DNA of 64,000 nt from Pyrinomonadaceae bacterium (lineage in GTDB: Bacteria; Acidobacteriota; Blastocatellia; Pyrinomonadales; Pyrinomonadaceae), in NCBI GenBank assembly GCA_051006195.1, contig JBPCIP010000069.1:5480-69479 (forward strand). Direction: 5' to 3'. The notes under the pieces are model-generated. The model saw nothing but the letters and a program-made list of their open reading frames with translations. It had not been told where the DNA came from and searched no databases. Each line of letters begins with the position of its first letter. Position 1 is the first letter of the stretch. A program made the translations under genes and the position numbers. Of the stretch, positions 7,470-63,524 are shown one piece after another.

Positions 7470-7512
7470 AATTTCGGTTCGGGCGATGGTTGACCTTGCC
7501 CGAACCGAAATT
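7470..7512. repeat. Hairpin (14-bp perfect stem) after the transporter operon
   Basis: aatttcggttcggg (7470-7483) pairs with cccgaaccgaaatt (7499-7512), 15-nt loop. It covers the annotated start of ORF 7486. Confidence 0.7.
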
Positions 7513-7527
7513 CTATTTGCGCCGTCC

Positions 7528-8175
7528 ATGCACATAATTCAACCGCCCACGATTAAATTGACTGGAGCGAACAGTTTCAATATGCCGAGCGCCAAGATCA
7601 AGATCGCCAGACAGACGGGTTCCGGCCAACTCCCCGCCGACGCCAGCCGCCTGCTCGAACTCATCATCGCTGAGATCGAGTCGCCCGTAGACACGCAGAA
7701 ACTGCTCGACAAATTCCCCCCGACCGACAGTTGCCACGAAGAGTCGCTCCGCTTCCTGAAGGCCAAAGACCGCGCGCAACGCCGCGCCGACTTCGTCGCG
7801 AACGAGGCTCTGTGGTGGCGCAAGTACGGCTGGTTCATGGCGCGCATCGTCGGGTTGTTCGGGCTGCTCGTCTTCGCCTTCGCCATGTCTGTGCGCGGCG
7901 CGGGCGTGGATTTCATCACCTTCGCCCTGCTCGGCGCTGCCGGGTACTATTTGCTGCTGATGACGGTCTCGAACATTCGCTACCGCGAAAAAAACAAGAA
8001 GCGGCGCAAACTGCTCGAACGCGAGCAGCAACAGTACCAGCGCGCCATCTTAGCGGTGGCCGCTTCACTCCTGAAAAAATTTCAAGTTGACCCGTCGCTC
8101 TACCCCATCGCCAAGCCAAGAAGCGGTGCGGGACTCATCGAGCGCGAAGACGGCTATTTCATTCCGGTTGAATGA
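7528..8175 (+). CDS. Hypothetical membrane protein (two predicted TM helices)
   Basis: ORF 7486..8175. The first codons lie inside the hairpin, so Met at 7528 or 7582 is the more likely start. No recognisable motif. Confidence 0.5.
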   Translation: MHIIQPPTIKLTGANSFNMPSAKIKIARQTGSGQLPADASRLLELIIAEIESPVDTQKLLDKFPPTDSCHEESLRFLKAKDRAQRRADFVANEALWWRKYGWFMARIVGLFGLLVFAFAMSVRGAGVDFITFALLGAAGYYLLLMTVSNIRYREKNKKRRKLLEREQQQYQRAILAVAASLLKKFQVDPSLYPIAKPRSGAGLIEREDGYFIPVE

Positions 8176-8187
8176 TTCGGTGATTCG

Positions 8188-9600
8188 ATGAGACGGAAAA
8201 TTATTTACAGTTTGCTCCTGTTAGCGACGCTCTCGCTGGCGACACGGACGATTTTCGCGAGCGGTGAAGCGGGAGAAGCGGGCGGCGCAGGTCATGGTCT
8301 CAACCCGTTCGTGCTCATTGGCGTCGCGCTCGTTTTGCTGATCGCTAAACTCGGCGGCGAGTTGTTCGAGCGTTTCGGTCAGCCAGCCGTGCTCGGCGAG
8401 TTGATCGGCGGGATGATCGTCGGCAACCTTGTGTTATTTGGCGTTACGGCCATCGAACCGCTGAAAACTGATGTGGTCATCGGCGCGCTCGCGGAGATCG
8501 GCGTCATCCTGCTGCTGTTTGAGGTGGGGCTGGAATCGAATCTCGGCGAGATGCTCGAAGTCGGCTGGTCGTCGCTGCTGGTGGCGACAGCAGGCGTGAT
8601 TGCGCCCTTCTTTCTCGGCTGGGGCGTGGCCGCTTATTTCATTCCTGACGAAGCGCAACTCGGCCATATCTTCATCGGCGCGACGCTCTGTGCCACATCG
8701 GTCGGCATCACGGCGCGCGTGCTGAAGGATATGGGCAAACTCAATACGCGCGTCGCCCGCATCGTGCTCGGCGCGGCGGTGATTGACGACGTGCTCGGCC
8801 TGATTATCCTCGCCGTCGTGCAGGGCGCGATTCAGGCGACCGCCACGGGCACTTCGCTTTCACTCCTGAGCGTCGGCATCATCACGCTCAAGGCCGTCGG
8901 CTTTCTCGTCGTCGCGCTCCTCGTCGGGCGATTCCTCGTGCCGTATCTCTTTCAAGGCGCGGGCAAACTCGAAGGGCGCGGCGTGTTGCTGGCCTTAGCG
9001 GTTGCGCTCTGTTTCGTGTTGTCGTGGGCGGCAGCCGGGATAGGTCTGGCCGCCATCGTCGGCGCGTTCGCCGCCGGGTTGTTGCTGGAAGAAGCGCACA
9101 TCGAGCGCATGCCCGGTCGCACGAAACATGATTTACATGAACTGCTCACGCCGCTGACCACCATCCTCGTCCCCATCTTCTTCGTCCTGATGGGTCTCAA
9201 GGTTGACCTCAGCACCTTCGCACGCCTCGACATTCTCGGCTTCGCGGCGGCGCTGACGCTGGTCGCGATCATCAGTAAACAGGTCTGCTCGCTGGCGGTC
9301 ATTGATCGCGGCATTAATCGTCTCGCCGTCGGCCTCGGCATGATCCCGCGCGGCGAAGTCGGCCTCATCTTCGCCGGTATCGGCGCGACCCTCATGCTCC
9401 CGAACGCGCAGGGCATCAATGAACCCGTCATCGGCAGCGCCACCTTCGCCGCCGTCGTCATCATGGTCATCATCACCACGCTCGTCACCCCGCCGCTGCT
9501 CAAGTGGTCGCTCGCGCGCACGCCTTCCGCACCCGACGAACCGCTCCCCGACGCCGAACGAGTGTTGGCCGACGAAGCCGCCGAACGCACGACTCGATAG
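8188..9600 (+). CDS. Cation:proton antiporter (CPA2 / Kef-type Na+/H+ exchanger family)
   Basis: 470 aa, about 12 TM segments, typical sodium/hydrogen exchanger family sequence (LGELIGGMIVGN..., GLIFAGIG). Confidence 0.8.
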   Translation: MRRKIIYSLLLLATLSLATRTIFASGEAGEAGGAGHGLNPFVLIGVALVLLIAKLGGELFERFGQPAVLGELIGGMIVGNLVLFGVTAIEPLKTDVVIGALAEIGVILLLFEVGLESNLGEMLEVGWSSLLVATAGVIAPFFLGWGVAAYFIPDEAQLGHIFIGATLCATSVGITARVLKDMGKLNTRVARIVLGAAVIDDVLGLIILAVVQGAIQATATGTSLSLLSVGIITLKAVGFLVVALLVGRFLVPYLFQGAGKLEGRGVLLALAVALCFVLSWAAAGIGLAAIVGAFAAGLLLEEAHIERMPGRTKHDLHELLTPLTTILVPIFFVLMGLKVDLSTFARLDILGFAAALTLVAIISKQVCSLAVIDRGINRLAVGLGMIPRGEVGLIFAGIGATLMLPNAQGINEPVIGSATFAAVVIMVIITTLVTPPLLKWSLARTPSAPDEPLPDAERVLADEAAERTTR

Positions 9601-9633
9601 TTCGCGACGGGGAATTACACGCGAGCCTGCGTC

Positions 9634-12844: not shown

Positions 12845-12969
12845 GCCGTCTGTTTACCCAACAGCGGATGAGAAGGTCGGTACGCGGCAACCGTCGGGCG
12901 TCTGAAATCTGATCTCAGATGCGAAATGTCGGATGAATAAGTTTCGGGAGCAGAAGAGGAGCTTGGTCA

Positions 12970-14097
12970 ATGTCGAACATCGCGGAGAAGATCGAAGGCA
13001 GGCAGTTGAAGGTGGTCGAGGCGGACAAAGTCGGCTCGGCGACTTCGCCGCTCAACTTGGCGAAGACGCTGGCGGTGATTGGTGCGTCGGACAAACCGCG
13101 CGCGGGCGATGTGGTGGTGGTGCGGGCGCTGAGCGATAGCGCGACGTATAACCAGTTGGAACTGGCGACGGGGCGGCTAGCGAAGATCAATCCGGGCGAT
13201 GTGCTCGTCGGTGTGCTCGGCAGCCGCCGCGCGTTGAAAGGCTTCGTCGGCGACGTGCCCGCGAGCATCGAAGCGGGCGACGAATTGCACCTGTTGAACA
13301 TGGGCGGCGTCATCGGACATTGCACGGGACATCATTCGAGTTTGAGCGATGCGATTCGCGTCGAAGTTGTCGGCCTCGTCTGTGATGCAGAGGCGCGGGT
13401 GCGAAACATCGCGGACGCCGCGTTGCCGCCCCGCGAAAGTTTGGGCGCGAGCGCGCCGCTCGTCCTCATCGCGGGCGCGTGCATGAACAGCGGGAAGACT
13501 TTTGCTGCGACGGAATTGATCCGGCAGGCGACGCGCACCGGCATGAAGGTGGCGGCGGGGAAACTGTCGGGCGTCGCGTGTCTGCGAGACACTTTGAACA
13601 TGGCCGATCACGGTGCGGTGGCGACGGCGAGTTTTCTCGATTGCGGCTTGCCTTCGACCGTCGGCATAGGCGATCTCGCGCCCGTGGCGAAAGCCATCAT
13701 CGCCAAATTGAACGAGAGCGCGCCCGACCTGATCGTGATCGAACTCGGCGACGGCATCCTCGGCGGCTACTCGGTCGAATCCGTCTTCGCGGATGTAGAG
13801 TTGCGCGCGGCGATGGCCGCGCTCATCTACTGCGCATCGGACTACGTCGGCGCGTGGGGCGGCATCGAGTTGTTTCGGCGGCGCGGCTTGACCGTTGATC
13901 TCGTCGCGGGTTCGGTGACGGATTCACAGATGGGCGAAGACTACATCACCGAGGAGTTTGGCGTCGCGGCGGGTAATGCACGCAGGGACGGGACGCGCCT
14001 GTTCGAGATCGTGCGAGAGAAAATTTCAAGTTTCAGGTCTCAAGTTTCAGGTTCGCCGAGCGCGCATGTGCTTGAGCCTGTTTTGATCGAAACCTGA
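12970..14097 (+). CDS. Uncharacterised P-loop protein (BioD/CobQ/DUF1611-like Walker A) embedded in the arginine operon
   Basis: 375-aa ORF with coding-like GC3. The N-terminal ~150 aa look beta-rich. LVLIAGACMNSGKTFAATEL (aa 164-183, nt ~13459-13518) has the G-x5-GKT form seen in BioD/CobQ/Pta-N/DUF1611 folds. DLIVIELGDG is a possible Walker B. Function unknown. Confidence 0.6.
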   Translation: MSNIAEKIEGRQLKVVEADKVGSATSPLNLAKTLAVIGASDKPRAGDVVVVRALSDSATYNQLELATGRLAKINPGDVLVGVLGSRRALKGFVGDVPASIEAGDELHLLNMGGVIGHCTGHHSSLSDAIRVEVVGLVCDAEARVRNIADAALPPRESLGASAPLVLIAGACMNSGKTFAATELIRQATRTGMKVAAGKLSGVACLRDTLNMADHGAVATASFLDCGLPSTVGIGDLAPVAKAIIAKLNESAPDLIVIELGDGILGGYSVESVFADVELRAAMAALIYCASDYVGAWGGIELFRRRGLTVDLVAGSVTDSQMGEDYITEEFGVAAGNARRDGTRLFEIVREKISSFRSQVSGSPSAHVLEPVLIET

Positions 14098-14160
14098 ATC
14101 TTGCTGATAAAGTCGAAAATCCTGAACCTTCAAACATGAACCTTCAAACATGAAACTCAA
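14027..14160. repeat. Short-period tandem/inverted repeat tract spanning the X/argC junction
   Basis: caagtttcaggtct + caagtttcaggtt (14027-14053); the inverted copy aacctgaatcttg (14091-14103); then gaaccttcaaacat x2 + gaaactcaaaat (14125-14160), which runs into the argC start. Confidence 0.7.
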
Positions 14161-15185: not shown

Positions 15186-15220
15186 GTGATGGATGACGGG
15201 TGATAAGTGACGAGATCAGA
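15186..15220. repeat. Tandem heptamer tract (5 units, GTGAnnn type) between argC and argD
   Basis: gtgatgg atgacgg gtgataa gtgacga gatcaga. TGA recurs every 7 nt, so all three frames are closed. No inverted partner was seen. Confidence 0.7.
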
Positions 15221-16486: not shown

Positions 16487-16981
16487 GTGAAACATATGGC
16501 CTTCACTGTGCGCCGGGCGAGGCGCGAGGATAATGAAGCCATCGGACGAATGCATGTGGCATCCATCAGAGAGCTGTGCCGCGAGCATTACAGCCCCGAT
16601 CAGATCGAAGCCTGGGCCGCGCCGCGTCAGGCTGAATTTTACGTTGAAGCGATTGAGCGCAAAGAGTTCTATGTCGCGGAAGACGACGAGGGCATCATCG
16701 GCTTCGGGATATTGAATCAAACGGGTGGCGAGGTCGAAGCCGTTTATGTTCATCCGCAGGCAGCGCAGCGCGGCGTGGGGCTGGAACTATTAAACATGTT
16801 GGAAGGGTGTGCGCGCGAATTGGGCTTGAGGTCGTTGCGGCTGTGCGCCTCTCTGAATGCCGTGCCGTTTTACGAGCGCGCGGATTACGTCCGGCAGCAG
16901 GATACGTCGCACCGACTGGCGAGCGGAGTTGAGATACCGTGCGTCTTGATGTTGAAGGAACTGGAGAGAAGCGCGGACTGA
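16487..16981 (+). CDS. GNAT family N-acetyltransferase (candidate short N-acylglutamate synthase by context)
   Basis: 164 aa with the acetyl-CoA motif VHPQAAQRGVGLELL. The role is inferred only from its position between argD and argF'. Confidence 0.7.
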   Translation: MKHMAFTVRRARREDNEAIGRMHVASIRELCREHYSPDQIEAWAAPRQAEFYVEAIERKEFYVAEDDEGIIGFGILNQTGGEVEAVYVHPQAAQRGVGLELLNMLEGCARELGLRSLRLCASLNAVPFYERADYVRQQDTSHRLASGVEIPCVLMLKELERSAD

Positions 16982-16989
16982 ACAGTAAC

Positions 16990-18018
16990 ATGAAGGCTAT
17001 GCCGAAAAATTTCCTGACAACTGCCGATTGGACACGCGACGAGCTAGAGCGTTTGCTCGAAGCGGCGGCGCGGTTCAAGCGCGGCGAAGATTCATCGAAG
17101 CCACTCGCGGGTAAGTCCGTCGCGCTGGTCTTTTTTAACCCTTCTTTACGCACGCGCGCTTCGATGCAGGTCGGGATTTATGAACTCGGCGGCAATCCGG
17201 TCGTGCTCGAACCGGGTGGGACGAGCTGGACGCTCGAACACCGCGACGGCATCGTGATGGACGGCGACAAGACGGAGCACGTCGCGGAATTTGTGCGCGT
17301 GCTCGGTCGGTATTGCGCGGCGATTGGCGTGCGCACCTTCGCGGCGTTGCAGAATTGGAAAGAGGAGCGGCGCGATCCGGTGCTCGCGGCATTCGCGCGC
17401 CACAGCGAAGTGCCGGTCATCAATCTCGAATCGGCGATGCACCACCCGTGTCAGGCGCTCGCGGACATGTTGACCATCAGGGAGAAACTCGGCGCGGGGC
17501 CGAAGCGCGTCCTCCTCACCTGGGCGTGGCATCCGAAGGCTTTGCCGATGGCCGTGCCGAACAGTTTCGCGCTCGCGGCGGTGCAGTTGGGGCACGAGTT
17601 GACCATCGCGCACCCGCCCGGCTACGAACTCGACGACGAGCTGATCGGGCAACTCAACGAGCGGGCGTTTGACGCGGGCACAAGCGTCAACGTCACAAAC
17701 GACGTGGAAGCGGCCTTCGACGGCGCACAAGTGGTCTACGCGAAGAGTTGGGGCAGCAAGATGTTCTACGGCTCGCCCGAAGATGACATCGAGACGCGCA
17801 CCGAGTATCGCCGCGATTGGATCGTGGACGCGGCGAAGATGCAACGCACCGGCGGCGGCATCTTCATGCACTGTCTCCCCGTGCGCCGCAACGTGATCGT
17901 GACGGACGACGTGATCGATTCCGCCGCGTCGGTGGTGATCGATGAAGCCGAGAACCGTTTGCATGTGCAGAAAGCTGTTTTGGCGAATGCGGATTTCGGA
18001 TTGCGGAATGCGGATTGA
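16990..18018 (+). CDS. argF': N-acyl-L-ornithine (acetyl/succinyl) carbamoyltransferase, ArgF'-type
   Basis: FFNPSLRTRAS, HHPCQALAD, VYAKSWGS (in place of the DxWxSMG of classical OTC) and FMHCLPVRRN match the AOTCase/SOTCase subfamily. Acyl specificity was not determined. Confidence 0.8.
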   Translation: MKAMPKNFLTTADWTRDELERLLEAAARFKRGEDSSKPLAGKSVALVFFNPSLRTRASMQVGIYELGGNPVVLEPGGTSWTLEHRDGIVMDGDKTEHVAEFVRVLGRYCAAIGVRTFAALQNWKEERRDPVLAAFARHSEVPVINLESAMHHPCQALADMLTIREKLGAGPKRVLLTWAWHPKALPMAVPNSFALAAVQLGHELTIAHPPGYELDDELIGQLNERAFDAGTSVNVTNDVEAAFDGAQVVYAKSWGSKMFYGSPEDDIETRTEYRRDWIVDAAKMQRTGGGIFMHCLPVRRNVIVTDDVIDSAASVVIDEAENRLHVQKAVLANADFGLRNAD

Positions 18019-18069
18019 AGAAATTCAATTTGTTTTTAATCCGCATTCTGCAATCCGAAATCCGCAATT
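17986..18069. repeat. 31-bp-stem palindrome built of heptamers (GCGGATT type) at the argF'/argB junction
   Basis: aatgcggatttcggattgcggaatgcggatt (17986-18016) pairs with aatccgcattctgcaatccgaaatccgcaatt (18038-18069), 2-3 mismatches. The left arm encodes the argF' C-terminus (ANADFGLRNAD*). Confidence 0.85.
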
Positions 18070-18078: not shown

Positions 18079-18966
18079 ATGAGCCAGCCGCGACTTGATC
18101 TGTTGCGCGAAGCCTTGCCGTACATTCAGCGGTTCAAAGGCAAAACTTTCGTCGTCAAAATCTCCGGCAAGCTGACGGAGGATCACGAGAATCTGCGTTC
18201 GCTCTGTGAAGAATTGGCACTGATGCATCAGGTCGGCATTCGTCTGTGCGTCGTACACGGGGGCGGCAAGCAGTTAACGGAACTCGCGGAGCAGATGGGC
18301 GTCGAGCAGACGATCATCAATGGCCGGCGCGTGACGAACGATGCGACGCTCGATATGGCGAAAATGATCTTCGCCGGAAAAATCAACATCGACATTCTGG
18401 CCGCGTTGCGCAATCACGGCGTGGATGCCGTCGGCTTGTCGGGCATCGACGGAAACATCGTGCATGCCGAACGCCGCCCGCCGAAAGATTTAATCAATCA
18501 GGAGACCGGCGCACAAGAGCGAGTCGATTTCGGGCACGTCGGCGATGTGTTGGAAATCGACGATCGGCTGTTGCGGGTGCTGCTCGATCACGAGTATCTG
18601 CCGGTCGTCTCACCGCTCGGTGCGGACGCCGCAGGCCGCGTCTACAACATTAACGCCGACACCATCGCCGCCGAGATCGCCGTGCGTCTGGAGGCGGAGA
18701 AATTGATTTTGCTGAGCGACGTGGATGGGTTGTACCTGCGTCCCGGCGAATCCGCGACGAAACTCTCGCGCCTCACCGTTGACGAAGTGACGAAACTTCT
18801 CAGCGACGGCGTCGCCACCGGGGGCATGATCCCGAAACTGCAAAACATCACCGAACTGCTTCATCGCGGCGTCCGCAGCGCGCATATCATCAAAGGTAGT
18901 TTGCGCAACACTTTGCTCTCCGAAGTCTTCACCGACGAAGGCACGGGCACGATGATCGTCGCGTAA
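18079..18966 (+). CDS. argB: Acetylglutamate kinase
   Basis: VVKISGK, VVHGGG and GGMIPK motifs, 295 aa. Confidence 0.95.
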   Translation: MSQPRLDLLREALPYIQRFKGKTFVVKISGKLTEDHENLRSLCEELALMHQVGIRLCVVHGGGKQLTELAEQMGVEQTIINGRRVTNDATLDMAKMIFAGKINIDILAALRNHGVDAVGLSGIDGNIVHAERRPPKDLINQETGAQERVDFGHVGDVLEIDDRLLRVLLDHEYLPVVSPLGADAAGRVYNINADTIAAEIAVRLEAEKLILLSDVDGLYLRPGESATKLSRLTVDEVTKLLSDGVATGGMIPKLQNITELLHRGVRSAHIIKGSLRNTLLSEVFTDEGTGTMIVA

Positions 18967-23286: not shown

Positions 23287-23403
23287 CATCTTTATCGTCA
23301 GCGTCAAACATCTGTTCGCAGAGGCTCTGTGATAGTTGTCAGGATCGGTGTAAGGCATTTAATTTTGAGCGCGTAGCAGACCACTGTTTCTAAATCAGTT
23401 CTT

Positions 23404-23658
23404 ATGACATTGGGACACTCGAAAATCGTTGGTCCAGCACATACCCTCGATGTTTATTGGCTTTCAAGCAAGTTGCCCGAAAGTGTCTGTCCCAATCTTG
23501 TAAGGACTGATTTAGAACTTCCGGCTCGTACCGGACACAAACTTTACGAATTTGGCTTTGTCGGCGCGCAGCCAGGTCGCTGGCGGGTTTGGGCTGTAAA
23601 CTCTAACGGTGACGAGGGGCCAAAATCTCAGTGGTGGGGATTCCGCTACACACAATGA
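23404..23658 (+). CDS. Hypothetical small protein (possible Fn3-like fragment) in a GC-poor islet
   Basis: 84-aa ORF ending ...GRWRVWAVNSNGDEGPKSQWWGFRYTQ. GC is lower than in the flanks. No assignable family. Confidence 0.35.
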   Translation: MTLGHSKIVGPAHTLDVYWLSSKLPESVCPNLVRTDLELPARTGHKLYEFGFVGAQPGRWRVWAVNSNGDEGPKSQWWGFRYTQ

Positions 23659-24347: not shown

Positions 24348-25214
24348 ATGACGCCCGCCCGCGAATGGCAACTTGCACGTCGCACGCTCGCGTTGGGCGG
24401 GCGCACGCTCATCATGGGCGTCTTAAATGTGACGCCGGATAGCTTCAGCGATGGCGGGCGATTTTACGATCCTGGAAAGGCCGTCGCACATGCCGAAGAG
24501 ATGTTGAGTGCGGGCGCGGACATCATCGACATCGGCGGCGAATCAACGAGGCCGGGCGGCGAAGCGGTGAGTGCGGATGAAGAGTTGCGGCGCGTCCTCC
24601 CCGTCGTCGAACGATTAGCTAAATTGCCGAACGTCGTCGTCTCCATCGACACGACGAAGGCGGAAGTGGCTCGCGCCGCGCTTGACGCCGGGGCGGAGAT
24701 CATCAACGACATCTCCGCACTCCGGTTCGATGCGCAGGTCGCGGATGAAGCGGCGCGTAGCAGCGCAGGACTCGTGCTCATGCACTCGCGCGGCACACCG
24801 GATACCTTGCATCAACTTCCGCCCGTCGCCGAGATTGTCGCGGAGGTGGTCAACAGTCTGCGCCGCAGCATCGCGTTGGCGGAACAGCATGGCGTTTCGC
24901 GCGCCGCCATCGCCATTGATCCCGGCATCGGCTTCGGCAAAAGTCAGGCGCAGAATGTGGAGTTGCTCGCGCGGCTGGCTCATTTAAAGCGGGAGTTCGC
25001 GGATTTGCCGCTCCTCGTCGGCACGTCGCGCAAGTCGTTCATCGGGAGATTGCTTGACAATGCTGCTATCGAAGACCGGCTGCACGGCACGATGGCGACA
25101 ATCACGGCAGCCATCCTGCATGGGGCGGATATCGTCCGCGTCCACGACGTGCGCGCCGCCGTCGAAACTGCGCGTGTGGCGGATGCAATAAAAGCCGTGG
25201 CTCGTGAATCGTGA
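24348..25214 (+). CDS. folP: Dihydropteroate synthase
   Basis: IMGVLNVTPDSFSDGG, DIGGESTRPG, GTSRKSFIG. The ATG at 24348 is preferred over the upstream TTG at 24321. Confidence 0.93.
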   Translation: MTPAREWQLARRTLALGGRTLIMGVLNVTPDSFSDGGRFYDPGKAVAHAEEMLSAGADIIDIGGESTRPGGEAVSADEELRRVLPVVERLAKLPNVVVSIDTTKAEVARAALDAGAEIINDISALRFDAQVADEAARSSAGLVLMHSRGTPDTLHQLPPVAEIVAEVVNSLRRSIALAEQHGVSRAAIAIDPGIGFGKSQAQNVELLARLAHLKREFADLPLLVGTSRKSFIGRLLDNAAIEDRLHGTMATITAAILHGADIVRVHDVRAAVETARVADAIKAVARES

Positions 25215-25247
25215 ATAGAACAAAACATGTCTTCACCTATTCACGAT
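25203..25247. repeat. Heptamer-based hairpin at the folP 3' end
   Basis: Tandem cgtgaat cgtgaat (25203-25216). atcgtgaatag (25208-25218) pairs with ctattcacgat (25237-25247). The folP stop codon is the TGA of the second heptamer. Confidence 0.7.
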
Positions 25248-27383: not shown

Positions 27384-27420
27384 CAGCGAGGCGGATCGAA
27401 TTGCTCGATCCGCCTCGCTG
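27384..27420 (-). terminator. Intrinsic terminator of rpsT
   Basis: cagcgaggcggatcga-attgc-tcgatccgcctcgctg, followed on the minus strand by cttttatttc. Confidence 0.75.
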
Positions 27421-31029: not shown

Positions 31030-31458
31030 ATGATGATTGAAGTCGTCAACCGTCAGCGCAAGCTGCCGCTTGATTGCGAATGCTGGGAAGCGTTTGCGGC
31101 GAAAGCGTTGAAAGTTGCTCCTGCTCGCGGCGTGGGCGTGACCGTCGCGTTCGTGTCAGACCGCGCGATGCGGGAACTCAATTGGCGTTGGCGCGGCAAG
31201 CGCGGGACGACCGATGTGTTGTCGTTTCCGGCGGAGCAGGCGGAGTTTGAAAAGTTGACGGGGGCGACGCTCGGCGATGTGGTAATTTCGGTCGAGCGGG
31301 CGGAGAAACAGGCAGCAGAGCATAATTTGAGTTTTGAGAGGGAAGTGGAACAATTGATCTTGCACGGCGTGCTCCACCTGTGCGGGCACGATCACGAAAC
31401 TGATGACGGCGAAATGAACGCGCTCGAACTGCGCTTGCGCCGTCGTCTTGGAATATAA
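31030..31458 (+). CDS. ybeY: rRNA maturation endoribonuclease YbeY
   Basis: HGVLHLCGHDHE zinc motif, 142 aa. Confidence 0.95.
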   Translation: MMIEVVNRQRKLPLDCECWEAFAAKALKVAPARGVGVTVAFVSDRAMRELNWRWRGKRGTTDVLSFPAEQAEFEKLTGATLGDVVISVERAEKQAAEHNLSFEREVEQLILHGVLHLCGHDHETDDGEMNALELRLRRRLGI

Positions 31459-31477: not shown

Positions 31478-31546
31478 AGTAGTCAGCAGCCAGTAGAAAA
31501 GCGGTGTTTTTCCTGTCTGGCTAGCGGCTACTGGCTACTGACTACT
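31478..31546. repeat. Heptamer-based palindrome (AGTnAGn type) between ybeY and corC-like
   Basis: agtagtcagcagccagtag (31478-31496) pairs with ctactggctactgactact (31528-31546), 1 mismatch, 31-nt loop. Confidence 0.85.
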
Positions 31547-34113: not shown

Positions 34114-34183
34114 TGACGAGTGACAGGTGACAAGATTGAAGCAATGCTGTTCTGACCCGTTACTTGTCACCTGTCACTCGTCA
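34114..34183. repeat. Heptamer-based palindrome (GTGACnn type), perfect 21-bp stem
   Basis: tgacgagtgacaggtgacaag (34114-34134) pairs with cttgtcacctgtcactcgtca (34163-34183), 28-nt loop. Confidence 0.9.
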
Positions 34184-37492: not shown

Positions 37493-37548
37493 AAGTTTCA
37501 GGCCGCAAGTTTTGAGCAAAGAACTTGAAAGCAGAAACTTGAAATTCG
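37493..37548. repeat. 14-nt-period direct plus inverted repeat tract
   Basis: aagtttcaggccgc aagttttgagcaaa | gaacttgaaagcag aaacttgaaattcg. caagttt/aaacttg and aagtttc/gaaactt can pair. Confidence 0.65.
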
Positions 37549-39027: not shown

Positions 39028-39102
39028 GAGCAGCAGAGGGCGAGCCGTCAGCAGTCGAGCCACACGTGGCCTTGTCTGCTGACGGCTCGCCCTCCGCTGC
39101 TC
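39028..39102. terminator. 27-bp-stem bidirectional hairpin between convergent genes
   Basis: gagcagcagagggcgagccgtcagcag pairs with ctgctgacggctcgccctccgctgctc (1 mismatch). T-run after it on the + strand. Confidence 0.85.
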
Positions 39103-43426: not shown

Positions 43427-43493
43427 GGGGAGGGGAAAAGGGAAAAGGGAAAGGATGAATCATTCTCCTTTCCCTTTTCCCTTTTCCCCTCCC
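43427..43493. terminator. Near-perfect 66-nt palindrome (GGGAAAA tandem units) downstream of the GGDEF gene
   Basis: ggggaggggaaaagggaaaagggaaagga-tgaatcattc-tcctttcccttttcccttttcccctccc. Confidence 0.85.
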
Positions 43494-43500: not shown

Positions 43501-45276
43501 CTAAGCGGTGGGTGTGTTGAGCGTTACGTCGCTCTCTACGACGGGCAGCATCAGCGCCGGGGTGTCGAACATTTCGTCGCTGACTTCCGTTTGCGGAGTC
43601 GGCGGGGTGTTGATGCGGTTGCGGCCTGTGTGTTTGGATTCGTAGAGCGCGCGATCCGCCGCCGTTACAAGTTGATCGCGCGAAGTGGCGTGGAGCGGAA
43701 ACGTGCTGAGGCCGAAGGAGGCCGTGATGTGGCCGATGCCCGGCACTTCCGTCGTCTCTAATCGTGAGCGCAAGCGTTCGGCGACGATTAACGCCCCTTC
43801 GAGGTTCGCCTGCGGGAGGATGACTGCAAATTCTTCGCCCCCGTAACGCGCCGCCGTATCCACGCCGCGCAGTTCGTCGCGCAGCAGGTCGGCGAGGAAC
43901 CGCAGGGCGGCATCGCCCGCGTCGTGGCCGTGGGTATCATTGACGCGTTTGAAGTGATCGATGTCGAGCATGATCAACGAGAGGGGTTGGCGCATTCGGG
44001 TCGCCAGACGCAAGTCGCGCTCTAGCTGCATCTCGAAAGAGCGGCGGTTGAGGCATCCCGTCAAACCGTCGGTTAAAGCCAACTGTTGCATCTGCGTAAA
44101 CAGGCGCGCGTGATTGACGGCGACGGCCACCTGATCGGCCACCGTGCGCAGGAGCAGCAACTCGTTCTCTTGCCAGACGCGATGCGGATCGTCCGAACAG
44201 ACTAGCAGCACGCCCATCGAACGCGCCTGATAGAGCAGCGGCACGACAGCTAACGGGCGCGTCTCATCTTCGGTTTGCGCCAACGATCCTCTCTGTTCGT
44301 CGAGCACGTAATGCTTGAGACGGCGGGCGAGTTGAGTATGATAGGCGTAGAGGTCGTTGACGAGCGCGCCGCGTTCCTCTTCATTCGGGGGGCCGTCGCG
44401 GAAATAGCATTTCATCACCGCCGACTCGTCGTTTTCGCCTTCGATGTGCAGGCCGCTGAACTGCACGCCGAGCGCCCGGCCAACCTCATCGACTGTTGTT
44501 TGCAGCACGCTCGGAAGCGAGAGCGAACTCCGAATCGCCGACGCGATGCGATTGATGGCGACTTCGCGGGCGGCCTGTTCTTGCAGCAGCCGCGCCAGTT
44601 TGGTGGTGACGGAGACGGTCAGTTGCAGCGAAGTGGCCTTCGGCATGCAAGTGCGCACGGCTTGCGAGAAGGCTCCCGACTGCTCGAAGCGTTCCGCCGT
44701 CACGCGCGCCATTAAATATTCCAGAGCCGAATAGACGATGTCCGGCTCGAACGTCCAGATAACTTCATCCTCCGTAGCCGTTCCCGTCCCGTCCGTCGCC
44801 TGCCCTTTCAGGGAGACGAGCAGGGCGGAGAAGCGCGCATCGGCGATGACAATGAAATGCTCGTTGTCGTCCCCCTGAGACAGGCGCGACATGAGCATCG
44901 ACTCGCGCACCTCATCCAGAAACCGCATTTCATTGTAGGCGTCCTCGGGGGCGACGAAAAAGAAGGCATGGCGCGCGGCACGACCGACTTTCAACACATG
45001 TTCCGCGGAGCGCGGCGAACGCTCAACCTGCAAAGGCAAACTCTCCACCACCAACGCCGCCAAATTGTTCTCCAAAACCACGTCCTCAAAATAGCGATGA
45101 AGTTGCGCGATTGTCTGTTCCGCGCAACGCACCGGCGTAAGCTGGCGTGAATGTTGAGAAAGTAGGGCTTGGTAGAGAGAAAGCATGAGACCTGATGACC
45201 GGGATGGCGCAGACGAGGCTCGCTTATGGGGAATTGCGATGTGCAATTCAGACGCCTGAGAAGACGGCGTAGACAA
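43501..45276 (-). CDS. Diguanylate cyclase (N-terminal sensor region + GAF + GGDEF)
   Basis: RYGGEEFAVILP active site, GLTGCLNRRSF, and an upstream GAF-like region. The start is uncertain. Confidence 0.88.
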   Translation of the reverse strand: MSTPSSQASELHIAIPHKRASSAPSRSSGLMLSLYQALLSQHSRQLTPVRCAEQTIAQLHRYFEDVVLENNLAALVVESLPLQVERSPRSAEHVLKVGRAARHAFFFVAPEDAYNEMRFLDEVRESMLMSRLSQGDDNEHFIVIADARFSALLVSLKGQATDGTGTATEDEVIWTFEPDIVYSALEYLMARVTAERFEQSGAFSQAVRTCMPKATSLQLTVSVTTKLARLLQEQAAREVAINRIASAIRSSLSLPSVLQTTVDEVGRALGVQFSGLHIEGENDESAVMKCYFRDGPPNEEERGALVNDLYAYHTQLARRLKHYVLDEQRGSLAQTEDETRPLAVVPLLYQARSMGVLLVCSDDPHRVWQENELLLLRTVADQVAVAVNHARLFTQMQQLALTDGLTGCLNRRSFEMQLERDLRLATRMRQPLSLIMLDIDHFKRVNDTHGHDAGDAALRFLADLLRDELRGVDTAARYGGEEFAVILPQANLEGALIVAERLRSRLETTEVPGIGHITASFGLSTFPLHATSRDQLVTAADRALYESKHTGRNRINTPPTPQTEVSDEMFDTPALMLPVVESDVTLNTPTA

Positions 45277-47377: not shown

Positions 47378-48025
47378 TCAATCCAATGTGCGCAGGACGG
47401 CGCGTGCCGGAGCGCCGTCGCCGCTGCCCGCCGCGATCTTCAAAGGCAGGCACATCAATTCGTAGACGCCCGCCGCCACTCCATGTAAATCCAACCCTTC
47501 GACGATGATAATGCCTGCTGAGAGCAGCCTCATGTGCGTCTCGAAAGTGTCGGATTTAAACTTCTCGACGGACAAATAGTCGATCCCGACGAGCCGCACG
47601 CCGCGTTCGACGAGCGCGCCTGCCGCTTCCGCCGTGAGATAAGTATAGTCCTCGCGAAACGCATTGCCGTTGTCACGCCAGAAAGCGGAGTTGCGCGTTT
47701 TGAAGAGCACGCGCGTCGTGCCCGCGGGTACGTTCTCAGTGACATGGCTGGCCTCAATTGCCTGCGCCGTTTCCGCGAGTTCCACGACGCGCGCTTCACC
47801 GATGAGAACGTCGAGCGACATCGCGGCAATCGTCGGCGCGTCCGGGATGAAATGCGCGGGGGCGTCGGCGTGTGTGGCCGTGTGTGCGCCGAAACGCAAG
47901 AGCGTCACATTGGCCGCATCGCCGCGTGCCAGGGCCGACCACGAAACGATCTCCAAACCGGGGTCGCCGGGATAAATTGGCGTCGTCTCCGGCGAGATGG
48001 CGACGCTGATGTCGTAAATAGGCAT
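47378..48025 (-). CDS. Cyclase-family protein / kynurenine formamidase-like
   Basis: GAHTATHADAPAHF matches the HxGTHxDxPxH cyclase motif. Confidence 0.8.
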   Translation of the reverse strand: MPIYDISVAISPETTPIYPGDPGLEIVSWSALARGDAANVTLLRFGAHTATHADAPAHFIPDAPTIAAMSLDVLIGEARVVELAETAQAIEASHVTENVPAGTTRVLFKTRNSAFWRDNGNAFREDYTYLTAEAAGALVERGVRLVGIDYLSVEKFKSDTFETHMRLLSAGIIIVEGLDLHGVAAGVYELMCLPLKIAAGSGDGAPARAVLRTLD

Positions 48026-48030: not shown

Positions 48031-48095
48031 AAGTGATAAGTGATGAGTAAGGACGAAAGCATTGTCTTTGACGCAGCACTCATCACTCATCACTT
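48031..48095. repeat. Heptamer-based palindrome (GTGATnA type) in a divergent intergenic region
   Basis: aagtgataagtgatgagt (48031-48048) pairs with actcatcactcatcactt (48078-48095), 1 mismatch. It lies between two divergent gene starts, so it terminates neither gene. Confidence 0.85.
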
Positions 48096-55598: not shown

Positions 55599-55608
55599 AA
55601 CAAGAGAT

Positions 55609-55658
55609 CAGAGGTTAGAGGCCAGTTGGAACTGGTTTGCACTAACCTCTAACCTCTG
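55609..55658. terminator. Heptamer-based hairpin (AGAGGTT type) downstream of the RNase E/G gene
   Basis: cagaggttagagg (55609-55621) pairs with cctctaacctctg (55646-55658); inner ccagtt/aactgg stem. It has the same heptamer as the 60819 element. Confidence 0.8.
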
Positions 55659-55661: not shown

Positions 55662-58600
55662 TTAAATAAAAGCGAAGTCGAACTGTTCCTGATGAACGCG
55701 CTCGTCGCTCGTGATGTCCACCGCGCCGAGATAATCTTCGATTTCGGTGAGCACGTCGCGTTCGGTGGAGCGGAGCGCGCGGGCCACTTCCGGGTTGATG
55801 CGCAAAGTCGTTTGCTTGATGCCGTCGCCGTTCATCCCGCGCGCGAGGCGGCGCGCTTCGTCGAGGATTTCGTAGCAGACGGTTTGCGCCGACTTCACCA
55901 AACCCGCGCCCTGACAATATTGGCAAGGGCTACAGAGCGTGCGTTCGAGCGACTGCTTGACGCGTTTGCGGGTCATGATGACGAGGCCGAAGTCGTTGAA
56001 GGAAAGCACCTTCGTCGGCGACTTGTCGTCGCGCAAAGCGTCTTGCAGGGCGGCCATCACGCGGTTGCGGTTGCGTCTGTCTTCCATGTCGATGAGATCG
56101 AGCACGATGATGCCGCCGAGATCGCGCAGGCGAATCTGGCGCGCGATTTCATCGACCGCTTCCATATTCGTCCGTGTGATGGTGTCTTCGAGACGTGTGC
56201 CGCCGCGCCCGACGAACTTGCCCGTGTTCACGTCAATCGCCACCAGCGCTTCCGTCTGGTTGATGACGAGGTAGCCGCCGGATTTCAACCACACGCGCGG
56301 CTTGATCGCCTTGTCGATCTCATCCTGCACGCCGAAGGCTTCGAGGATCGGCGCTTCGCGCGTGTAGAGTTTGGCGCGAGTGACGAGGCGCGGCTGGATG
56401 CGGTTGATGAATTCAACGATGGCCTGATATTCCTCTTCGGAATCGACGCGGATGGCCGTGAAGTCGTCGGAGAGTTGATCGCGCAGAATGCGCTGCACGA
56501 GGTCGAGGTCTTTGTGCGTGAGCGTCGGGGCTTTCTGTTTCTCGGCGGTGCGGCGAATGTCGAGCCATGTGCGCACGAGATAGCGCGCGTCGTCTCGGAG
56601 GTCTTCTTCGCTGATGCCGATGCCGGCGGTGCGAACGATGAAGCCGCCCGACGGTACGTCTTCCGTCGCGCGAATGTTTTGGATCAACTTGCGCAAACGC
56701 ACCCGCTCGCTGTCGGACTCGATCTTGCGCGAGACGCCAACATGCTCGACCGTCGGCATGTAGACGAGGAACCGACCGGGCAGAGCGATGTGCGACGTGA
56801 TGCGTGCGCCTTTCGCCGCGATGGGCTCTTTCGCGATCTGGACCAGAATTTCCTGCCCTTCACGCAAAAGGTCTGTGATGAGCGGCGTGTGCCGGTCGCG
56901 CCCGCCACCGCGCCCTCCGCCGCGCCCGCCTTCATTGCGCCCGCCTTCGCCGCGCCCGCCTTCATTGCGCCCGCCTTCGCTGCGCCCGCCTTCGCTGCGC
57001 TCTGCGCCTTCGCCGTTGTTCCCACGGGGAGCGCGCTCGCCGCCACGTTCGCCGCGATCATTACGACCACCACCGCGCGAATTACGGCCTCTCGGTTCAG
57101 GTCGCCCTTCAGCACGCGATTCGGGGCGCGCTTCAGTACGCGGTTCGGGGCGCATTTCAATGGGCGGTTCCGGTCGTGCCGCCGGAGTTTCTTCAATTGC
57201 CGCCGCTTCAGACGCAAGCGGCTCGTTAACTTCTTCGGCATGACCGTTGGAACCGTCGGCTTCAACTCCGCCTTCTTCGGGTTTGCCGCCGGGGCGACGA
57301 TTGCGCCGGCGCCCGCCGCGCCGGGCAAATTCGCCGCGCGCCGGCCTGTCCGCGACCCCTGCTTCCGCGTCCGCGAGCGGCTGATTGTCCTTCAACGCTT
57401 CGGCTGCTGCGTCGTCCGGGGCATTGCCCTCGGCAGCGGCTTCCGCCGCCGCCTCGCCGGATTTGGCTTTGCCGGCGCGAGATGTCGAACCGCCCTTCGC
57501 CGCCGACTTGCCTTTCGTGGGCGGCTTCTTTGTCGTCGCCGTTGTTGTTGCTTCTTTCGTTCCGCGCGCCGAACGGCTGCTCTTTTTCTTCGCGCCAATC
57601 TCTTCCGTCGCATCGTCCGGCGTGGCGCTCGTCGTGATTGTTTCCTCCGCCGTAGTTTCATCCGGCGTCGATTCGTCGTCGGCCTTCTTGCTCTTGCCTG
57701 CGCGGCGCGACTTGCTCGCCCTGCTGCCGCGCGCCGGAGTCGCGGTTTCGCCATCCGTCAGCCTTACGCCTTCGACGGCTTTCTCCTCATCGTCGCTGAT
57801 GCGCTCGAACGATTGAGTTTCACCCGCGCTTAGCGCGGAGTCTGCGGCGTGGTCGTCCACGAATGCGGCCACTGTCGCGGCGACCGCAGGTTGAATCGCT
57901 TCAACTGTGCGCGGAGCGACATCGTGCGCGTCGTCATCGTCAGCGATGCGCTGGAAGGAAGTGTTGGCGGAGGCATTTTCGGCAGCAAACAGCGAGCCGA
58001 CTTCCGTCGCCGTGGGCGTTTCCATATCGAACTCGACGGCGTGAATTTGATCGAAGATGCGTTCCTGTAAACGCGCATCCTTGAACATCTCGCCCTCGCC
58101 CGCCGCCTCGTCATCCACGATGCGCTGGAACGATTTATCCGCTGCCCCGAAAGGCGTCTCGAACTCCTCGCGCGCCGTGAGGCGCGCTTTCACTTCATCA
58201 GCGAAACTCGTCGCCGGAGGCGTCTGGCTGCCGGCGTTCGCCGCTGCTGCCGCCGTGCCAAGTGCCTGCGGATAGTTGTCGCGCCCGCCTCTGCGACGTT
58301 TATTGCGGTCGCGTCGCCCGCCGCTCTGCCCGGTCAAGTCCGCGCCTTCATCTGAGGCGGCGGCGGCGATGATGGGTGTCGCCGGTTCGTCCTCCGCCAG
58401 CCCCACCATCGGCAGTTCGAATTCGGGCGCTTCATCCTCTTCTTCTTCATCCGCATCGAGAATCGGTTGCGCGCGTTCCTGCGCAGAGTCCATCTGGCGT
58501 TCGCGCTCAAGCCGCGAGCGTTCCAGTTTCTCGGCGGCGGCGCGAGCGGCGGAAGCAGCGTCCGCTCCCTCCGTCTTCTTCTTGTCCACGACGATGCGCT

Positions 58601-58844
58601 CGAACTCTTCCTCTTCATCGAAGAAATCTGAGACGTAGAGAAAGGCGTCGCGCTCCAGCCCGATGTCAACGAAGGCCGACTGCATCCCCGGCAGCACGCG
58701 CATGACGCGCCCCTTGTAGATGTTGCCGACGATTCCCTGCCCGTCCTCGCCGCGTTCGATATAAAACTCCGTGACCTTGCCATTCTCGATGATGGCGATC
58801 TTCTTTTCGCGCCCGTTGACGCTGACGATTAATTCTTTCGACAT
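55662..58844 (-). CDS. RNase E/G family endoribonuclease with a ~570-aa low-complexity insertion
   Basis: N-terminal S1 part ([35 protein letters not shown]). After about 570 acidic/Ala/Arg-Gly-rich residues comes the remainder ([39 protein letters not shown]...[10 protein letters not shown]...CPCCxG-like CQYCQGAG). Confidence 0.9.
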   Translation of the reverse strand: [1060 protein letters not shown]

Positions 58845-59650
58845 TAGAAAATTTTTGACTCCTGATACGACCCTCCGGCGCGTCTTCCAAAGAAAAGGGC
58901 GGTGGTCGAGGTGTGGACAGAGAGCGGGAAACGTGCGGTGCGCGCAGTTGTTCTACAGTTGCGCGGCGCGAGACGCGTTTACCTCGCATGGGAAGCGACG
59001 CCGTCACCACTACTACTATTACTGCGGCGGCGTGCGCTCTGTGCAGGTGAGATGATTTGAAATTTACGGACGACGGCGGGACGTGTGGGCAACACAAACG
59101 ACAGTTCTGCGACATAGCTGTTGAAGCGCGCCCCGCATTGCCCCGACAAGCTTTGCCCGGCATTTGGAAGCGCCGCTTCCGCTACAGCGGAAAAGCGATT
59201 TGAACTGTTCACGAGAAACTCCGTCAAGCCGCTCCGCTCGAAGCGCGCCGGGTTTCCTGACGGAGCGCGTTGGTGGCAGTTGCAGCAATGGAAAAACTTT
59301 CCGGCCTGCATGTTTCCTGCTTCCGACGAGCGTCCGCTTTCTACCCTCGCAGCTTCAACCATGCGTTCGACCGTCGCCCACTTAGCCTGCGACCTCAGTT
59401 CAAACGCGAGCGACATCAAATATCACACCGAAAGCCCGTTAGAAAACCCACCGGGCCGGAAAAACTTGCGTCTCACTTAGCCGAAGGCGCATCAGCAAAC
59501 TTCCCCGCAGAGAAGACCGTGAATACGCTGCGCCAACAGCTTGAGCGAAACGTTTGCGAGTATAACCAAGAAAATGCTCTTTGTCAGTTGTCCGCTGCCA
59601 GTTGTTCGCCGTCAGTTGCCTGTGGTTTGTGCGTCACCGAATAAAGCTGG

Positions 59651-59686
59651 AATTGACAAACTGACAATTGTCAACGGACAACGGAC
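59651..59686. repeat. Tandem heptamer tract (AAnnGAC) after rodA
   Basis: aattgac aaactgac aattgtc aacggac aacggac. It contains the palindrome gacaattgtc. Confidence 0.6.
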
Positions 59687-60814: not shown

Positions 60815-60818
60815 AAGG

Positions 60819-60897
60819 CAGAGGTTAGAGGTTAGAGGTCAGAGGTTAGAGGAAATCAGTTAGTAACTGACCTCTGACCTCTAACCTCTAACCCCTG
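60819..60897. repeat. Heptamer-based palindrome (AGAGGTT x4), 27-bp stem, at the mrdA/rodA junction
   Basis: cagaggttagaggttagaggtcagagg (60819-60845) pairs with cctctgacctctaacctctaacccctg (60871-60897), 1 mismatch. The right arm and inner stem encode the mrdA C-terminus (...GLEVRGQRSVTN*). Confidence 0.9.
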
Positions 60898-62814: not shown

Positions 62815-62822
62815 AAAGTTAT

Positions 62823-62905
62823 TGACGAGTGACAAGCGACAAGGTTAAGAGATGCTCAGAGCGACTTTCCCTCCGGGATTTTAACTCGTCACTTGTCACT
62901 CGTCA
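62823..62905. repeat. Heptamer-based palindrome (GTGACnn type) at the mreD/mrdA junction
   Basis: tgacgagtgacaagcgacaag (62823-62843) pairs with ctcgtcacttgtcactcgtca (62885-62905), 2 mismatches, ~41-nt loop. Confidence 0.8.
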
Positions 62906-62918
62906 CCTAATCACTGCT

Positions 62919-63449
62919 CTAACGTCTGACCAGACTGCGACGCGCGGCGCGGCGGCGAAAGGCGAAATGGCGACGCTGGCGCGCGCGGTCGCTGAAAAAA
63001 ATATCGAACATGTAAAAGATGAACGTGCCCGCAATGGTGGTCGCGATGGTCTTGTAGGCCGTCGTCTCGGCGAAGGGCACGAGCGAGGGCTGTCCGAGCA
63101 TGCGATGGAGGAACACGATCACGACGGCATCGAGCGCCGCCGCCCCTGCTAAGACGGGAATTCGCGCCAGCGGGTTGTCGAGCATCACGCGCGTCACCAC
63201 CGCGACGATCAGATAGGCGATGAGCGTCTTGCTGAAACCGTTTGCGCCCAATAATCCTTTGCTGAAAAAATCCGTGGCGAGTCCGGCCACGAATCCCACG
63301 ATGAGAGCCTGCACCACATCGCGCCGCAGGGCGAAATAGGTGACGACGACGAGCGGCAGATCAAGATAAACCAGCGGCGGCCAGACGAGACGCAAATTCG
63401 TCTGCAACAACACGGCGAGAACGACACAAACGGCGATCTTCAGTCTCAT
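62919..63449 (-). CDS. mreD: Rod shape-determining protein MreD
   Basis: 176 aa, hydrophobic, between mreC and mrdA. Start at MRLKIAVCVV. Confidence 0.8.
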   Translation of the reverse strand: MRLKIAVCVVLAVLLQTNLRLVWPPLVYLDLPLVVVTYFALRRDVVQALIVGFVAGLATDFFSKGLLGANGFSKTLIAYLIVAVVTRVMLDNPLARIPVLAGAAALDAVVIVFLHRMLGQPSLVPFAETTAYKTIATTIAGTFIFYMFDIFFSDRARQRRHFAFRRRAARRSLVRR

Positions 63450-63456
63450 AAAAAAA

Positions 63457-63524
63457 GTGACAGGTGACAGATAAGAGGTGACAGGGAGAAGCACAATTTG
63501 ATTTCGTCATCTGTCACCTGTCAC
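63457..63524. repeat. Heptamer-based palindrome (GTGACAG type) at the mreC/mreD junction
   Basis: gtgacaggtgacagat (63457-63472) pairs with atctgtcacctgtcac (63509-63524). On the minus strand the arm encodes the mreC C-terminus (KAVTGDR*). Confidence 0.85.

Follow-up and report, generated by a model that had tools for sequence, protein, structure and literature searches.

Gene junctions in a 64,000-nucleotide stretch of the genome of a soil-dwelling Pyrinomonadaceae bacterium (assembly GCA_051006195.1, contig JBPCIP010000069.1, positions 5,480 to 69,479; below, the window, numbered from its first letter) carry hairpins whose arms are built from tandem copies of a unit of about seven nucleotides (nt), one arm holding the reverse complement of the array in the other. 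Such heptamer hairpins characterize the Pyrinomonadaceae lineage (Acidobacteriota) as a whole, with roughly 1-3 in every 10 kb. With about even confidence, we interpret them as hairpin-forming heptanucleotide microsatellites that are made and renewed in place and are probably operon-internal RNA stem-loops.

The window contains 21 hairpins of at least 13 bp. In 11 of them, arm autocorrelation at period 7 is 0.6 or higher, a level reached by no more than one hairpin at each of the remaining periods between 3 and 12. Sixty block-wise dinucleotide shuffles of the window gave on average 3.55 hairpins, 0.22 of them with period 7 (maximum 3), which places the pattern well outside chance. Coding sequence makes up 89% of the window, yet all 11 period-7 arrays of at least three units were intergenic; arrays of period 5 or 6 lay nearly all within genes. 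We extended the analysis to 1.25 Mb, consisting of the window and loci from ~80 related species. The ArgB protein of the window (18079-18966) is 77-94% identical to proteins of 80 species-level genomes, all labelled Pyrinomonadaceae, Acidobacteriota or close name variants except for a single 'uncultured bacterium'. This sample yielded 476 hairpins, and 7 was the best arm period in 185 of the 304 that were periodic, followed by period 9 (28 hairpins) and period 8 (26). Arrays of period 7 numbered 327, compared with 28 of period 8 and 46 of period 5; 282 of the 327 were intergenic although 90% of the sample is coding, and 245 of those 282 (87%) had a reverse-complement partner within 160 nt. The density of heptamer hairpins was mostly 1-3 per 10 kb and ranged between lineages from 0 to 4. 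A sequence-only reading of the window had proposed a constant period and layout for these palindromes; the predominance of period 7 and a peak of array size at 4-5 units bear this out.

The elements recur at orthologous positions in hundreds of independent assemblies, and the hairpin between argF and argB in the window has the same base at every position in three independent assemblies; we therefore rejected an assembly artefact. No Rfam 15 family was found at or above its gathering threshold anywhere in the window, and a permissive Rfam search of one window gap returned nothing credible.

Direct reading and independent repeat finders gave ten sites in the window that are clear hairpins with arms of tandem ~7-nt units. 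They have 14-28 paired bases at 88-100% complementarity, and RNA folding energies of -30 to -60 kcal/mol (z of -6 to -12 at nine sites and -3.1 at the other). For each, we give paired bases over arm length and arm autocorrelation at period 7.

17988-18066, argF-argB junction: GCGGATT/TCGGATT/GCGGAAT, four units per arm; 28/29 bp, autocorrelation 0.82, -59 kcal/mol, z -9.95. The argF open reading frame (ORF) stops within the 5' arm and the argB Shine-Dalgarno sequence GGAGG lies 4 nt past the 3' arm.
31478-31546, between ybeY (31030-31458) and a CNNM/CorC transporter gene (31554-32876): AGTAGTC/AGCAGCC/AGTAG; 18/19, autocorrelation 0.75, z -3.1.
34114-34183, between a deoxyhypusine-synthase-like gene and a CxxCxxCC gene: GTGACGA GTGACAG GTGACAA; 21/21 bp, autocorrelation 0.79, z -7.6.
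34668-34730, between the CxxCxxCC gene (stop at 34676, within the 5' arm) and a DUF6897 gene: GGTGAGT GGTAAAT GGTGA; 23/23 bp, autocorrelation 0.62, z -11.9.
43428-43493, 8 nt past the stop of a GGDEF gene (43501-45276, minus strand), with an ABC transporter as the next downstream gene: GGGAAAA units; 28/28 bp, autocorrelation 0.76, z -7.9.
48031-48095, within a divergent intergenic region and 5 nt upstream of where a cyclase gene starts (47378-48025, minus strand): GTGATAA GTGATGA; 17/18, autocorrelation 0.91, z -6.4.
55603-55658, between an RNase E/G gene (stop at 55662, minus strand) and an alpha/beta hydrolase gene: AGAGGTT; 14/16, autocorrelation 0.78, z -6.0.
60819-60897, pbp2/mrdA-rodA junction, the pbp2 ORF stopping within the arm: AGAGGTT, four to five units per arm; 27/28 bp, autocorrelation 0.90, -55.8 kcal/mol, z -11.3.
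62823-62905, mreD-pbp2 junction: GTGACGA GTGACAA GCGACAA; 17/18, autocorrelation 0.82, z -7.4.
63457-63524, mreC-mreD junction, with an A-run and a T-run at its sides: GTGACAG units; 16/16, autocorrelation 0.89, z -6.9.

In the 1.25-Mb sample, heptamer hairpins followed the ends of genes. They lay at 152 co-directional, 18 convergent and 8 divergent junctions, and only 2 of 186 were intragenic. Against a background of 800 co-directional, 156 convergent and 139 divergent junctions, these counts correspond to 19%, 11.5% and at most 5.8% of junctions, respectively, several 'divergent' assignments being gene-calling errors. Divergent (promoter) regions are avoided, although they are the longest non-coding stretches; the element at 48031-48095, which had been described from sequence as sitting between divergent gene starts, is real but an exception. 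The median distance from stop codon to hairpin was 2 nt, with the stop inside the 5' arm in 70 of the 152 co-directional cases, and that from the end of the hairpin to the next start codon was 11 nt. Two clusters of the window, argR-argG-ORF-argC-argD-GNAT-argF-argB and mreC-mreD-pbp2-rodA-rne, are punctuated in this way, with elements at almost every junction and up against the next ribosome-binding site.

Rho-independent terminators likewise place a stable stem-loop directly downstream of a stop codon, and the hairpins could be non-canonical intrinsic terminators or attenuators, strong stems lacking a U-tract, at which transcription would stop or be throttled behind each gene. Their start at stop codons, their enrichment at gene 3' ends, the high stability of the stems and the A- and T-runs beside a few of them (63457, 60819) support this explanation, which we nevertheless consider improbable. 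TTTT occurred within 10 nt downstream of only 9% of the 152 co-directional elements, below the 19% of other hairpins, so that 91% lack a U-tract, and the stems are long, moderate in GC and set inside conserved clusters. The arg and mreC-mreD-pbp2-rodA clusters are co-transcribed in other bacteria and their elements abut the next ribosome-binding site; ordinary GC-rich, terminator-type hairpins hold other junctions (35024, 39028, 4159), and in many relatives the genes flanking the same junction overlap or abut. A terminator role is unlikely, and the earlier view that simple termination does not explain all of these elements holds. Terminator-like hairpins of the ordinary kind, GC-rich and non-periodic in contrast to the heptamer hairpins, lie at 39028-39102, 4159-4193, 35024-35061 and 27384-27420. 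Those at 39028 (-68 kcal/mol) and 35024 occupy convergent junctions; that at 4159 lies between two co-directional minus-strand genes and has A/T runs at its sides.

The proximity of elements to coding sequence also affects gene models. At the 3' end of argF (16939-18018 in the window; loci L004-L083 in relatives), the reading frame continues into the 5' arm, so that heptamers encode the final 6-15 residues of ArgF, which vary with the species. The C-terminal tails ANADFGLRNAD, AKLIAECGMRNAD and KAVTSDE, each ending at the stop codon, are examples from different species. Downstream, the longest-ORF starts at 34691, 62835 and 63494 fall within 3' arms and are probably mis-called.

The elements vary little in size. 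Arrays of four to fewer than five units were the most frequent class in both arms (97 and 102 of 227); the median array length was 30-31 nt, the median paired stem 25 nt and the median loop 23 nt. The stems are moderate in GC and, as RNA, would be near-perfect over 15-30 bp, with complementarity spread broadly from 80 to 100%. In 54% of elements, the arrays of the two arms are at least about one unit apart in length. The 5' arm is poor in C (A 30%, C 15%, G 34%, T 21%) and has more G than C in 85% of heptamer hairpins, compared with 54% of other hairpins. This polarity is present at co-directional, convergent and divergent junctions alike and, because the arms are inverted, the G-rich arm comes first on both DNA strands. 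Speculatively, a C-rich arm transcribed first would expose a tract resembling a Rho-loading site, which a G-rich arm would not. Unit sequence is diverse, with 85 canonical units among 198 heptamer hairpins, and its vocabulary is non-random: GTGA is found in 64 of 227 units where 12 are expected, and (C)AAGTTTC- and AAAGGGG-type units are also frequent. We rejected selection of units for stop codons in all frames, as their stop-triplet content (51.5%) is close to the 47.7% predicted from composition; TGA and GTGA are enriched although this overall content is not above composition.

Such regularity might reflect a protein for which the 7-nt register serves as a ruler, one unit being bound per subunit or domain and arm binding competing with the hairpin. 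Candidates would be OB folds of the cold-shock-domain or S1 type, bound to single-stranded RNA or DNA, or else an RNA-binding regulator with a ring shape; each CspB protein is noted to cover a single heptamer, with little sequence specificity (PMC4679880). A protein ruler fits the sharp bias towards 7, as opposed to 6 or 8, and towards about four units, as well as the consistent C-poor-first polarity and the excess of GTGA. We regard it as very unlikely, however: 85 different units are hard to square with a sequence-specific binder, the elements have no link to any candidate protein, a perfect stem holds most arrays and would hide single-strand sites, and the heptamer repeats of other phyla are mostly direct rather than inverted.

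Orthologous junctions, whose comparison among relatives the sequence-only reading had suggested, show that the hairpin is kept while its unit changes. At argF-argB, we detected a hairpin in 46 of 79 species, built from more than ten unit families (GCGGAAT, GTGACAA, GGGGTAA, GTCAGTN, GTGATGA, CCGTGAA, GGATGAA, GGGTGTT, GACGATG, AAGGTTC and others). Presence at one junction persists across species whose argB DNA differs by 15-25%, with a gradual drift of unit variants from relative to relative. In metagenome relatives at 63-87% protein identity, the junctions on either side of the CxxCxxCC gene show the same pattern. In species that lack the argF-argB hairpin, the genes abut or overlap, with a spacer of 0-10 nt. 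At one argF-argB junction, in a metagenome-assembled genome (L045), an N-run and homopolymer noise lie exactly at the hairpin position of other species, an apparent sequencing or assembly disturbance. Downstream of the CxxCxxCC homologue of L131, a more distant relative (53% protein identity) and probably another taxon, a hairpin appears to have arms of 8-nt units in tandem (GGAGACAC-like), so hairpins of related design but different period may exist outside Pyrinomonadaceae. L004 has two inverted GTGACAA-type arrays about 200 nt apart (18543-18574 and 18773-18797), a possible long-loop member enclosing other sequence.

Repeated insertion of several families of small mobile palindromes at gene ends, by a transposase encoded elsewhere in the genome, might also account for the elements; such families would resemble repetitive extragenic palindromic (REP) sequences or miniature transposable elements with inverted repeats (MITEs). 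Unit families are shared by 16% of element pairs within a genome and 6.8% between genomes (2.4-fold, permutation p<0.002), largely independently of distance, and in the window GTGACNN, AGAGGTT, CGTGAAT and GCGGATT each recur at unrelated junctions. The same few argF-argB families also appear in clades that are not each other's closest on the argB tree, and the two junctions around the CxxCxxCC gene often share one family within a species. On the other side, 84% of within-genome pairs belong to different families, the number of units differs between arms in 54% of elements and units drift gradually among relatives. The loops have no conserved word or motif, being merely A-rich on the 5' side and T-rich on the 3' side, as is generic, and they are unrelated even among elements with the same unit; a shared loop motif as the sign of a mobile core was rejected on this ground. 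Inspection of filled and empty orthologous argF-argB junctions revealed no target-site duplication, only 20 of 227 elements (9%) have GTAG or CGTC, the tags of REP super-families, near the stem base, and no transposase was found among 30 scanned proteins of the 64-kb window. We consider mobile families an unlikely source, and the diversity of units, the featureless loops and the scarcity of tags agree with the earlier statement that the elements do not form one REP or MITE consensus. Remodelling in place, rather than copying of a mobile consensus, is the best-supported reading.

The two arms change in concert. In 81 species pairs with alignable arms, there were 191 double changes that preserved pairing, 17 that did not and 234 one-sided changes. 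The transition:transversion ratio was 3.1 for doubles and 3.5 for singles, which we take as equal, and this fits a single mutation copied across to the other arm better than two independent hits. In sense orientation, the mismatches comprised 86 G·U, 85 A·C and 94 of the transversion type, an unfiltered spectrum that lacks a wobble signature.

That spectrum is also what favours a purely mutational by-product, in which self-renewing palindromic microsatellites persist where they are harmless and bring the cell no benefit. The spread of stem complementarity from 80 to 100%, the existence of arm-only and decayed copies, the many species without an element at a given junction and the range of densities among lineages argue in the same direction. 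We nonetheless hold this explanation to be rather unlikely, given the persistence at one junction across species with 15-25% argB difference, the narrow size distribution, the strict polarity, the avoidance of divergent regions despite their length and the ratio of 191 to 17 among double changes. A strong self-correcting mechanism could yield most of these latter patterns without selection.

Renewal in place, as we envisage it, would work as follows. The element consists of a C-poor tandem array, a loosely AT-rich loop of ~10-40 nt and the reverse-complement array, occupies the presumably transcribed spacer from the upstream stop codon to just before the next ribosome-binding site, and would persist only in such spacers. 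We infer slippage and template switching as the generating steps. Slippage in whole 7-nt units would alter the copy number of each arm separately, unit sequences would drift and be replaced, and the arms would stay complementary through pair-preserving double changes. The simplest cause of that complementarity would be arm-to-arm copying by template switching in replication, with possible help from selection acting on the stem; that template switching can create and maintain hairpins has been documented (PMC8794818). In the mRNA, the stem most probably acts within polycistronic transcripts, where it might be a barrier to 3' exonucleases, as REP sequences are, or a processing site for a double-strand RNase (RNase III-type) that uncouples neighbouring cistrons.

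Several observations weigh against this account. The near-equality of G·U and A·C mismatches gives no sign of selection on the sense RNA; since a single mismatch may make no difference to a stem of 25 bp, this is compatible with an RNA role, and the formation and processing of an RNA stem-loop are predictions. Of the 191 pair-preserving doubles, 129 involve a variant that is also present in the adjacent unit and could be register shifts rather than point copying, so register shifts contribute. Sharing of unit families within genomes is not predicted by in-place origin alone. Because species with a 0-10-nt argF-argB spacer lack the hairpin, the element is dispensable there. Copy number did not vary among three or four assemblies of the same species, whose arms were identical with one substitution in one loop, and slippage is therefore not fast at the strain scale; additional look-ups with proteins returned no exact match. 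Finally, the account leaves the 7-nt step unexplained.

The closest class on record is that of inverted heptamer arrays in Xanthomonas, in which each genome has 70-75 inverted ('convergent') pairs of GGGAATC arrays that prefer ~4 units, adjoin or overlap stop codons and vary between Xcc and Xac with the repeat type kept (Rehm et al. 2015, PLoS One, PMC4692102). The supposition of the sequence-only reading that no described class had heptamers as inverted arms was thus mistaken. The elements described here share with these pairs the 7-nt unit, short arrays of ~4 units, inverted arrays able to form a stem-loop, an intergenic position at or over the upstream stop, and variation of length and sequence among relatives with the type kept. 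They differ in phylum and, above all, in the unit: Xanthomonas has essentially one G-rich unit, interpreted as G-quadruplex-forming, whereas we count at least 85 canonical units; among the units of 227 hairpins, none matches GGGAATC exactly and 10 come within one mismatch of it. Arrays are paired in 87% of cases here and in ~75% in Xanthomonas (computed from numbers in PMC4692102). We rejected a G-quadruplex reading for the elements, as only 13 of 227 (6%) have arms with at least four G3 runs. They thus have every structural feature of the Xanthomonas class except the single G-quadruplex-type unit, and the searchable literature yielded no account of such elements from Acidobacteriota. We therefore judge that what is new here is a many-unit version of an inverted heptamer class previously described with a single unit in Xanthomonas.

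Other heptamer repeats are more distant. Heptameric simple sequence repeats (SSRs) are over-represented in many bacteria, and 7 nt has been proposed to be the DNA segment held by polymerase (relayed in PMC4692102); the same paper cites a report of tandem heptanucleotides in Calothrix and a finding from 2007 that heptamers are over-represented among the SSRs of bacteria. The short tandemly repeated repetitive (STRR) sequences of cyanobacteria, the Nostoc repeats GGGGA(T/C)T and the repeated TAACTGA of Beggiatoaceae and cyanobacteria resemble our elements in having few tandem copies of a 7-nt unit, overwhelmingly in intergenic positions and often near gene ends. These are mostly direct arrays of one or a few fixed units, in contrast to the inverted pairs seen here; Nostoc has few inverted pairs and 'Maribeggiatoa' one inverted set in 170 (PMC4692102, PMC4679880). 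Across 227 hairpins, no unit exactly matched CCCCAGT, TTGGTCA, CAACAGT, GGGAATC, GGGGATT, TAACTGA, ATCTTTC or GTGATTA, and near matches to STRR units were at chance level. Units within one mismatch of TAACTGA numbered 19 of 227, with ~6 expected from shuffled versions, in counts that are not phylogenetically independent. CAACTGA, found in L011, L013, L016 and at 59583-59686 in the window, is one such TAACTGA-like unit.

A transcribed heptamer repeat that forms an arm of a long RNA hairpin is known from the 5' untranslated region (5'-UTR) of Haemophilus influenzae hmw1A, where the (ATCTTTC)n hairpin is cut by RNase III and the RNA structure feeds back on changes in repeat number (PMC12721329). 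It illustrates, in a functioning case, a way in which such a stem can act. There, however, a single phase-variable 5'-UTR locus has at least ten repeats paired to a non-repeat G-rich arm; here, both arms are repeats, the arrays are short and follow stop codons, and copy number did not differ between the same-species assemblies compared.

Like the heptamer hairpins, the REP sequences and bacterial interspersed mosaic elements (BIMEs) of enterobacteria and pseudomonads are small, imperfect palindromes that occur hundreds of times, between genes transcribed together and at 3' ends. Stem-loops of the REP type shield the mRNA upstream of them from 3' exonucleases and can determine in what ratio the genes of an operon are expressed. 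A comparable protection of mRNA and setting of ratios is the working model that we favour, by analogy, for the elements. REPs have a species-wide consensus and GTAG/CGTC heads that are recognized by RAYT transposases (PMC3733652). The heptamer hairpins differ from them in lacking a consensus and in having internally periodic arms, and the unconserved loops and the lack of visible duplications at argF-argB likewise set them apart from MITEs. They lack the defining features of STRR, REP/BIME, MITEs and intrinsic terminators alike. Foldback (FB) transposons of Drosophila also have inverted arms of short tandem subrepeats, and are kilobase-scale, mobile and eukaryotic; we have no evidence of mobility for the elements studied here.

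A broader form of the same idea, which we put forward as tentative and on balance doubtful, is that the elements amount to a genome-wide punctuation of operons. Several hundred self-renewing heptamer palindromes per genome (extrapolated from 1-3 per 10 kb) would be maintained by arm copying at the DNA level rather than by compensatory selection on RNA, would obey a conserved molecular ruler of 7 nt and ~4 units, and their stems, as signals for processing or stability, would set the expression ratios of neighbouring cistrons. The replisome, an OB-fold protein or a double-strand RNase may be that ruler. Were this true, the ruler could also explain the heptamer repeats of cyanobacteria, Xanthomonas and Beggiatoaceae.

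Beyond the ten core sites, the arm-only array at 15186-15220 in the list of the sequence-only reading stood, whereas four further entries (25203, 12901, 14027-14160 and 37493) proved weak, with z between -1.4 and -2.6 where given. Two others changed character: the supposedly arm-only tract at 59651-59686 has a pairing partner, and the palindrome at the stated start of the range, at 7470, is not heptameric.

15186-15220, filling the argC-argD spacer: arm-only imperfect heptamer array, GTGATGG ATGACGG GTGATAA GTGACGA, for which the window hairpin search found no inverted partner.
59583-59686, directly past the rodA stop (59690, minus strand): long-loop hairpin of heptamers and 14-mers (GTCAGTT GTCCGCT... 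versus ...CAACGGA CAACGGA), z -2.3, in which 59583-59605 pairs with 59651-59686 over a 58-nt loop (19/23).
14027-14160, junction before argC: weak member made of two 14-nt-period arrays (TCAAGTTTCAGGTC in 1.9 copies and TGAACCTTCAAACA in 2.3 copies), imperfectly inverted relative to each other; z -2.6.
37493-37548, past the gene at 36022-37479: weak 14-nt-period inverted array (AAGTTTCAGGCCGC AAGTTTTGAGC versus ...AAACTTGAAA); z -2.35.
25196-25247, between folP (pterin-binding) and lptE: marginal member of two to three CGTGAAT units with an 11-bp stem; z -1.4, not significant; at 25203-25247 there are two units, on one side only.
12901-12945, past argG: marginal tract TCTGAAA TCTGATC TCAGATG with a small local palindrome, unconvincing as a heptamer hairpin.
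7470-7512: hairpin (AATTTCGGTTCGGGC...) with a perfect 15-bp stem and a TTCGG-like internal repeat of period 5-6, overlapping the annotated start of ORF 7486-8175, which has no Pfam match.

Other repeats of the window are of different kinds. In the 414-nt gap downstream of ftsH, an AT-rich inverted repeat at 23388-23517 has arms of 30 nt that are 87% complementary and stand 70 nt apart; folding is strong for either strand (z -5.4 and -5.7), and the repeat is non-heptameric and has no Rfam match. A tandem repeat with periods of 18, 12 and 30 nt (30565-30721, ~8.7 copies of CCGCGCCCTCGACCTCGC) lies inside a NACHT-domain NTPase gene (28967-31024), between the NACHT and the C-terminal helical domains. 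Tandem repeats of 12, 15, 24 and 30 nt at 56897-57170 fall in the long N-terminal extension of RNase E/G (55662-58844, minus strand), whose catalytic domain begins only at residue 688.

For work on these bacteria, the elements have practical consequences. They distort annotation, as ORFs that enter arms give species-specific C-terminal tails and downstream longest-ORF starts fall inside arms, and they can interrupt assemblies, as seems to have happened at L045. Should they insulate cistrons, they would offer a ready library of sequence-diverse, non-recombining stem-loops for synthetic operons. The lineage is an unusually rich natural experiment, with dozens of unit families, ~87% of arrays in hairpin form and orthologous sites across at least about 80 sequenced species, in which the questions of origin, namely the slippage step, template switching and the co-evolution of arms, become testable by comparative genomics.

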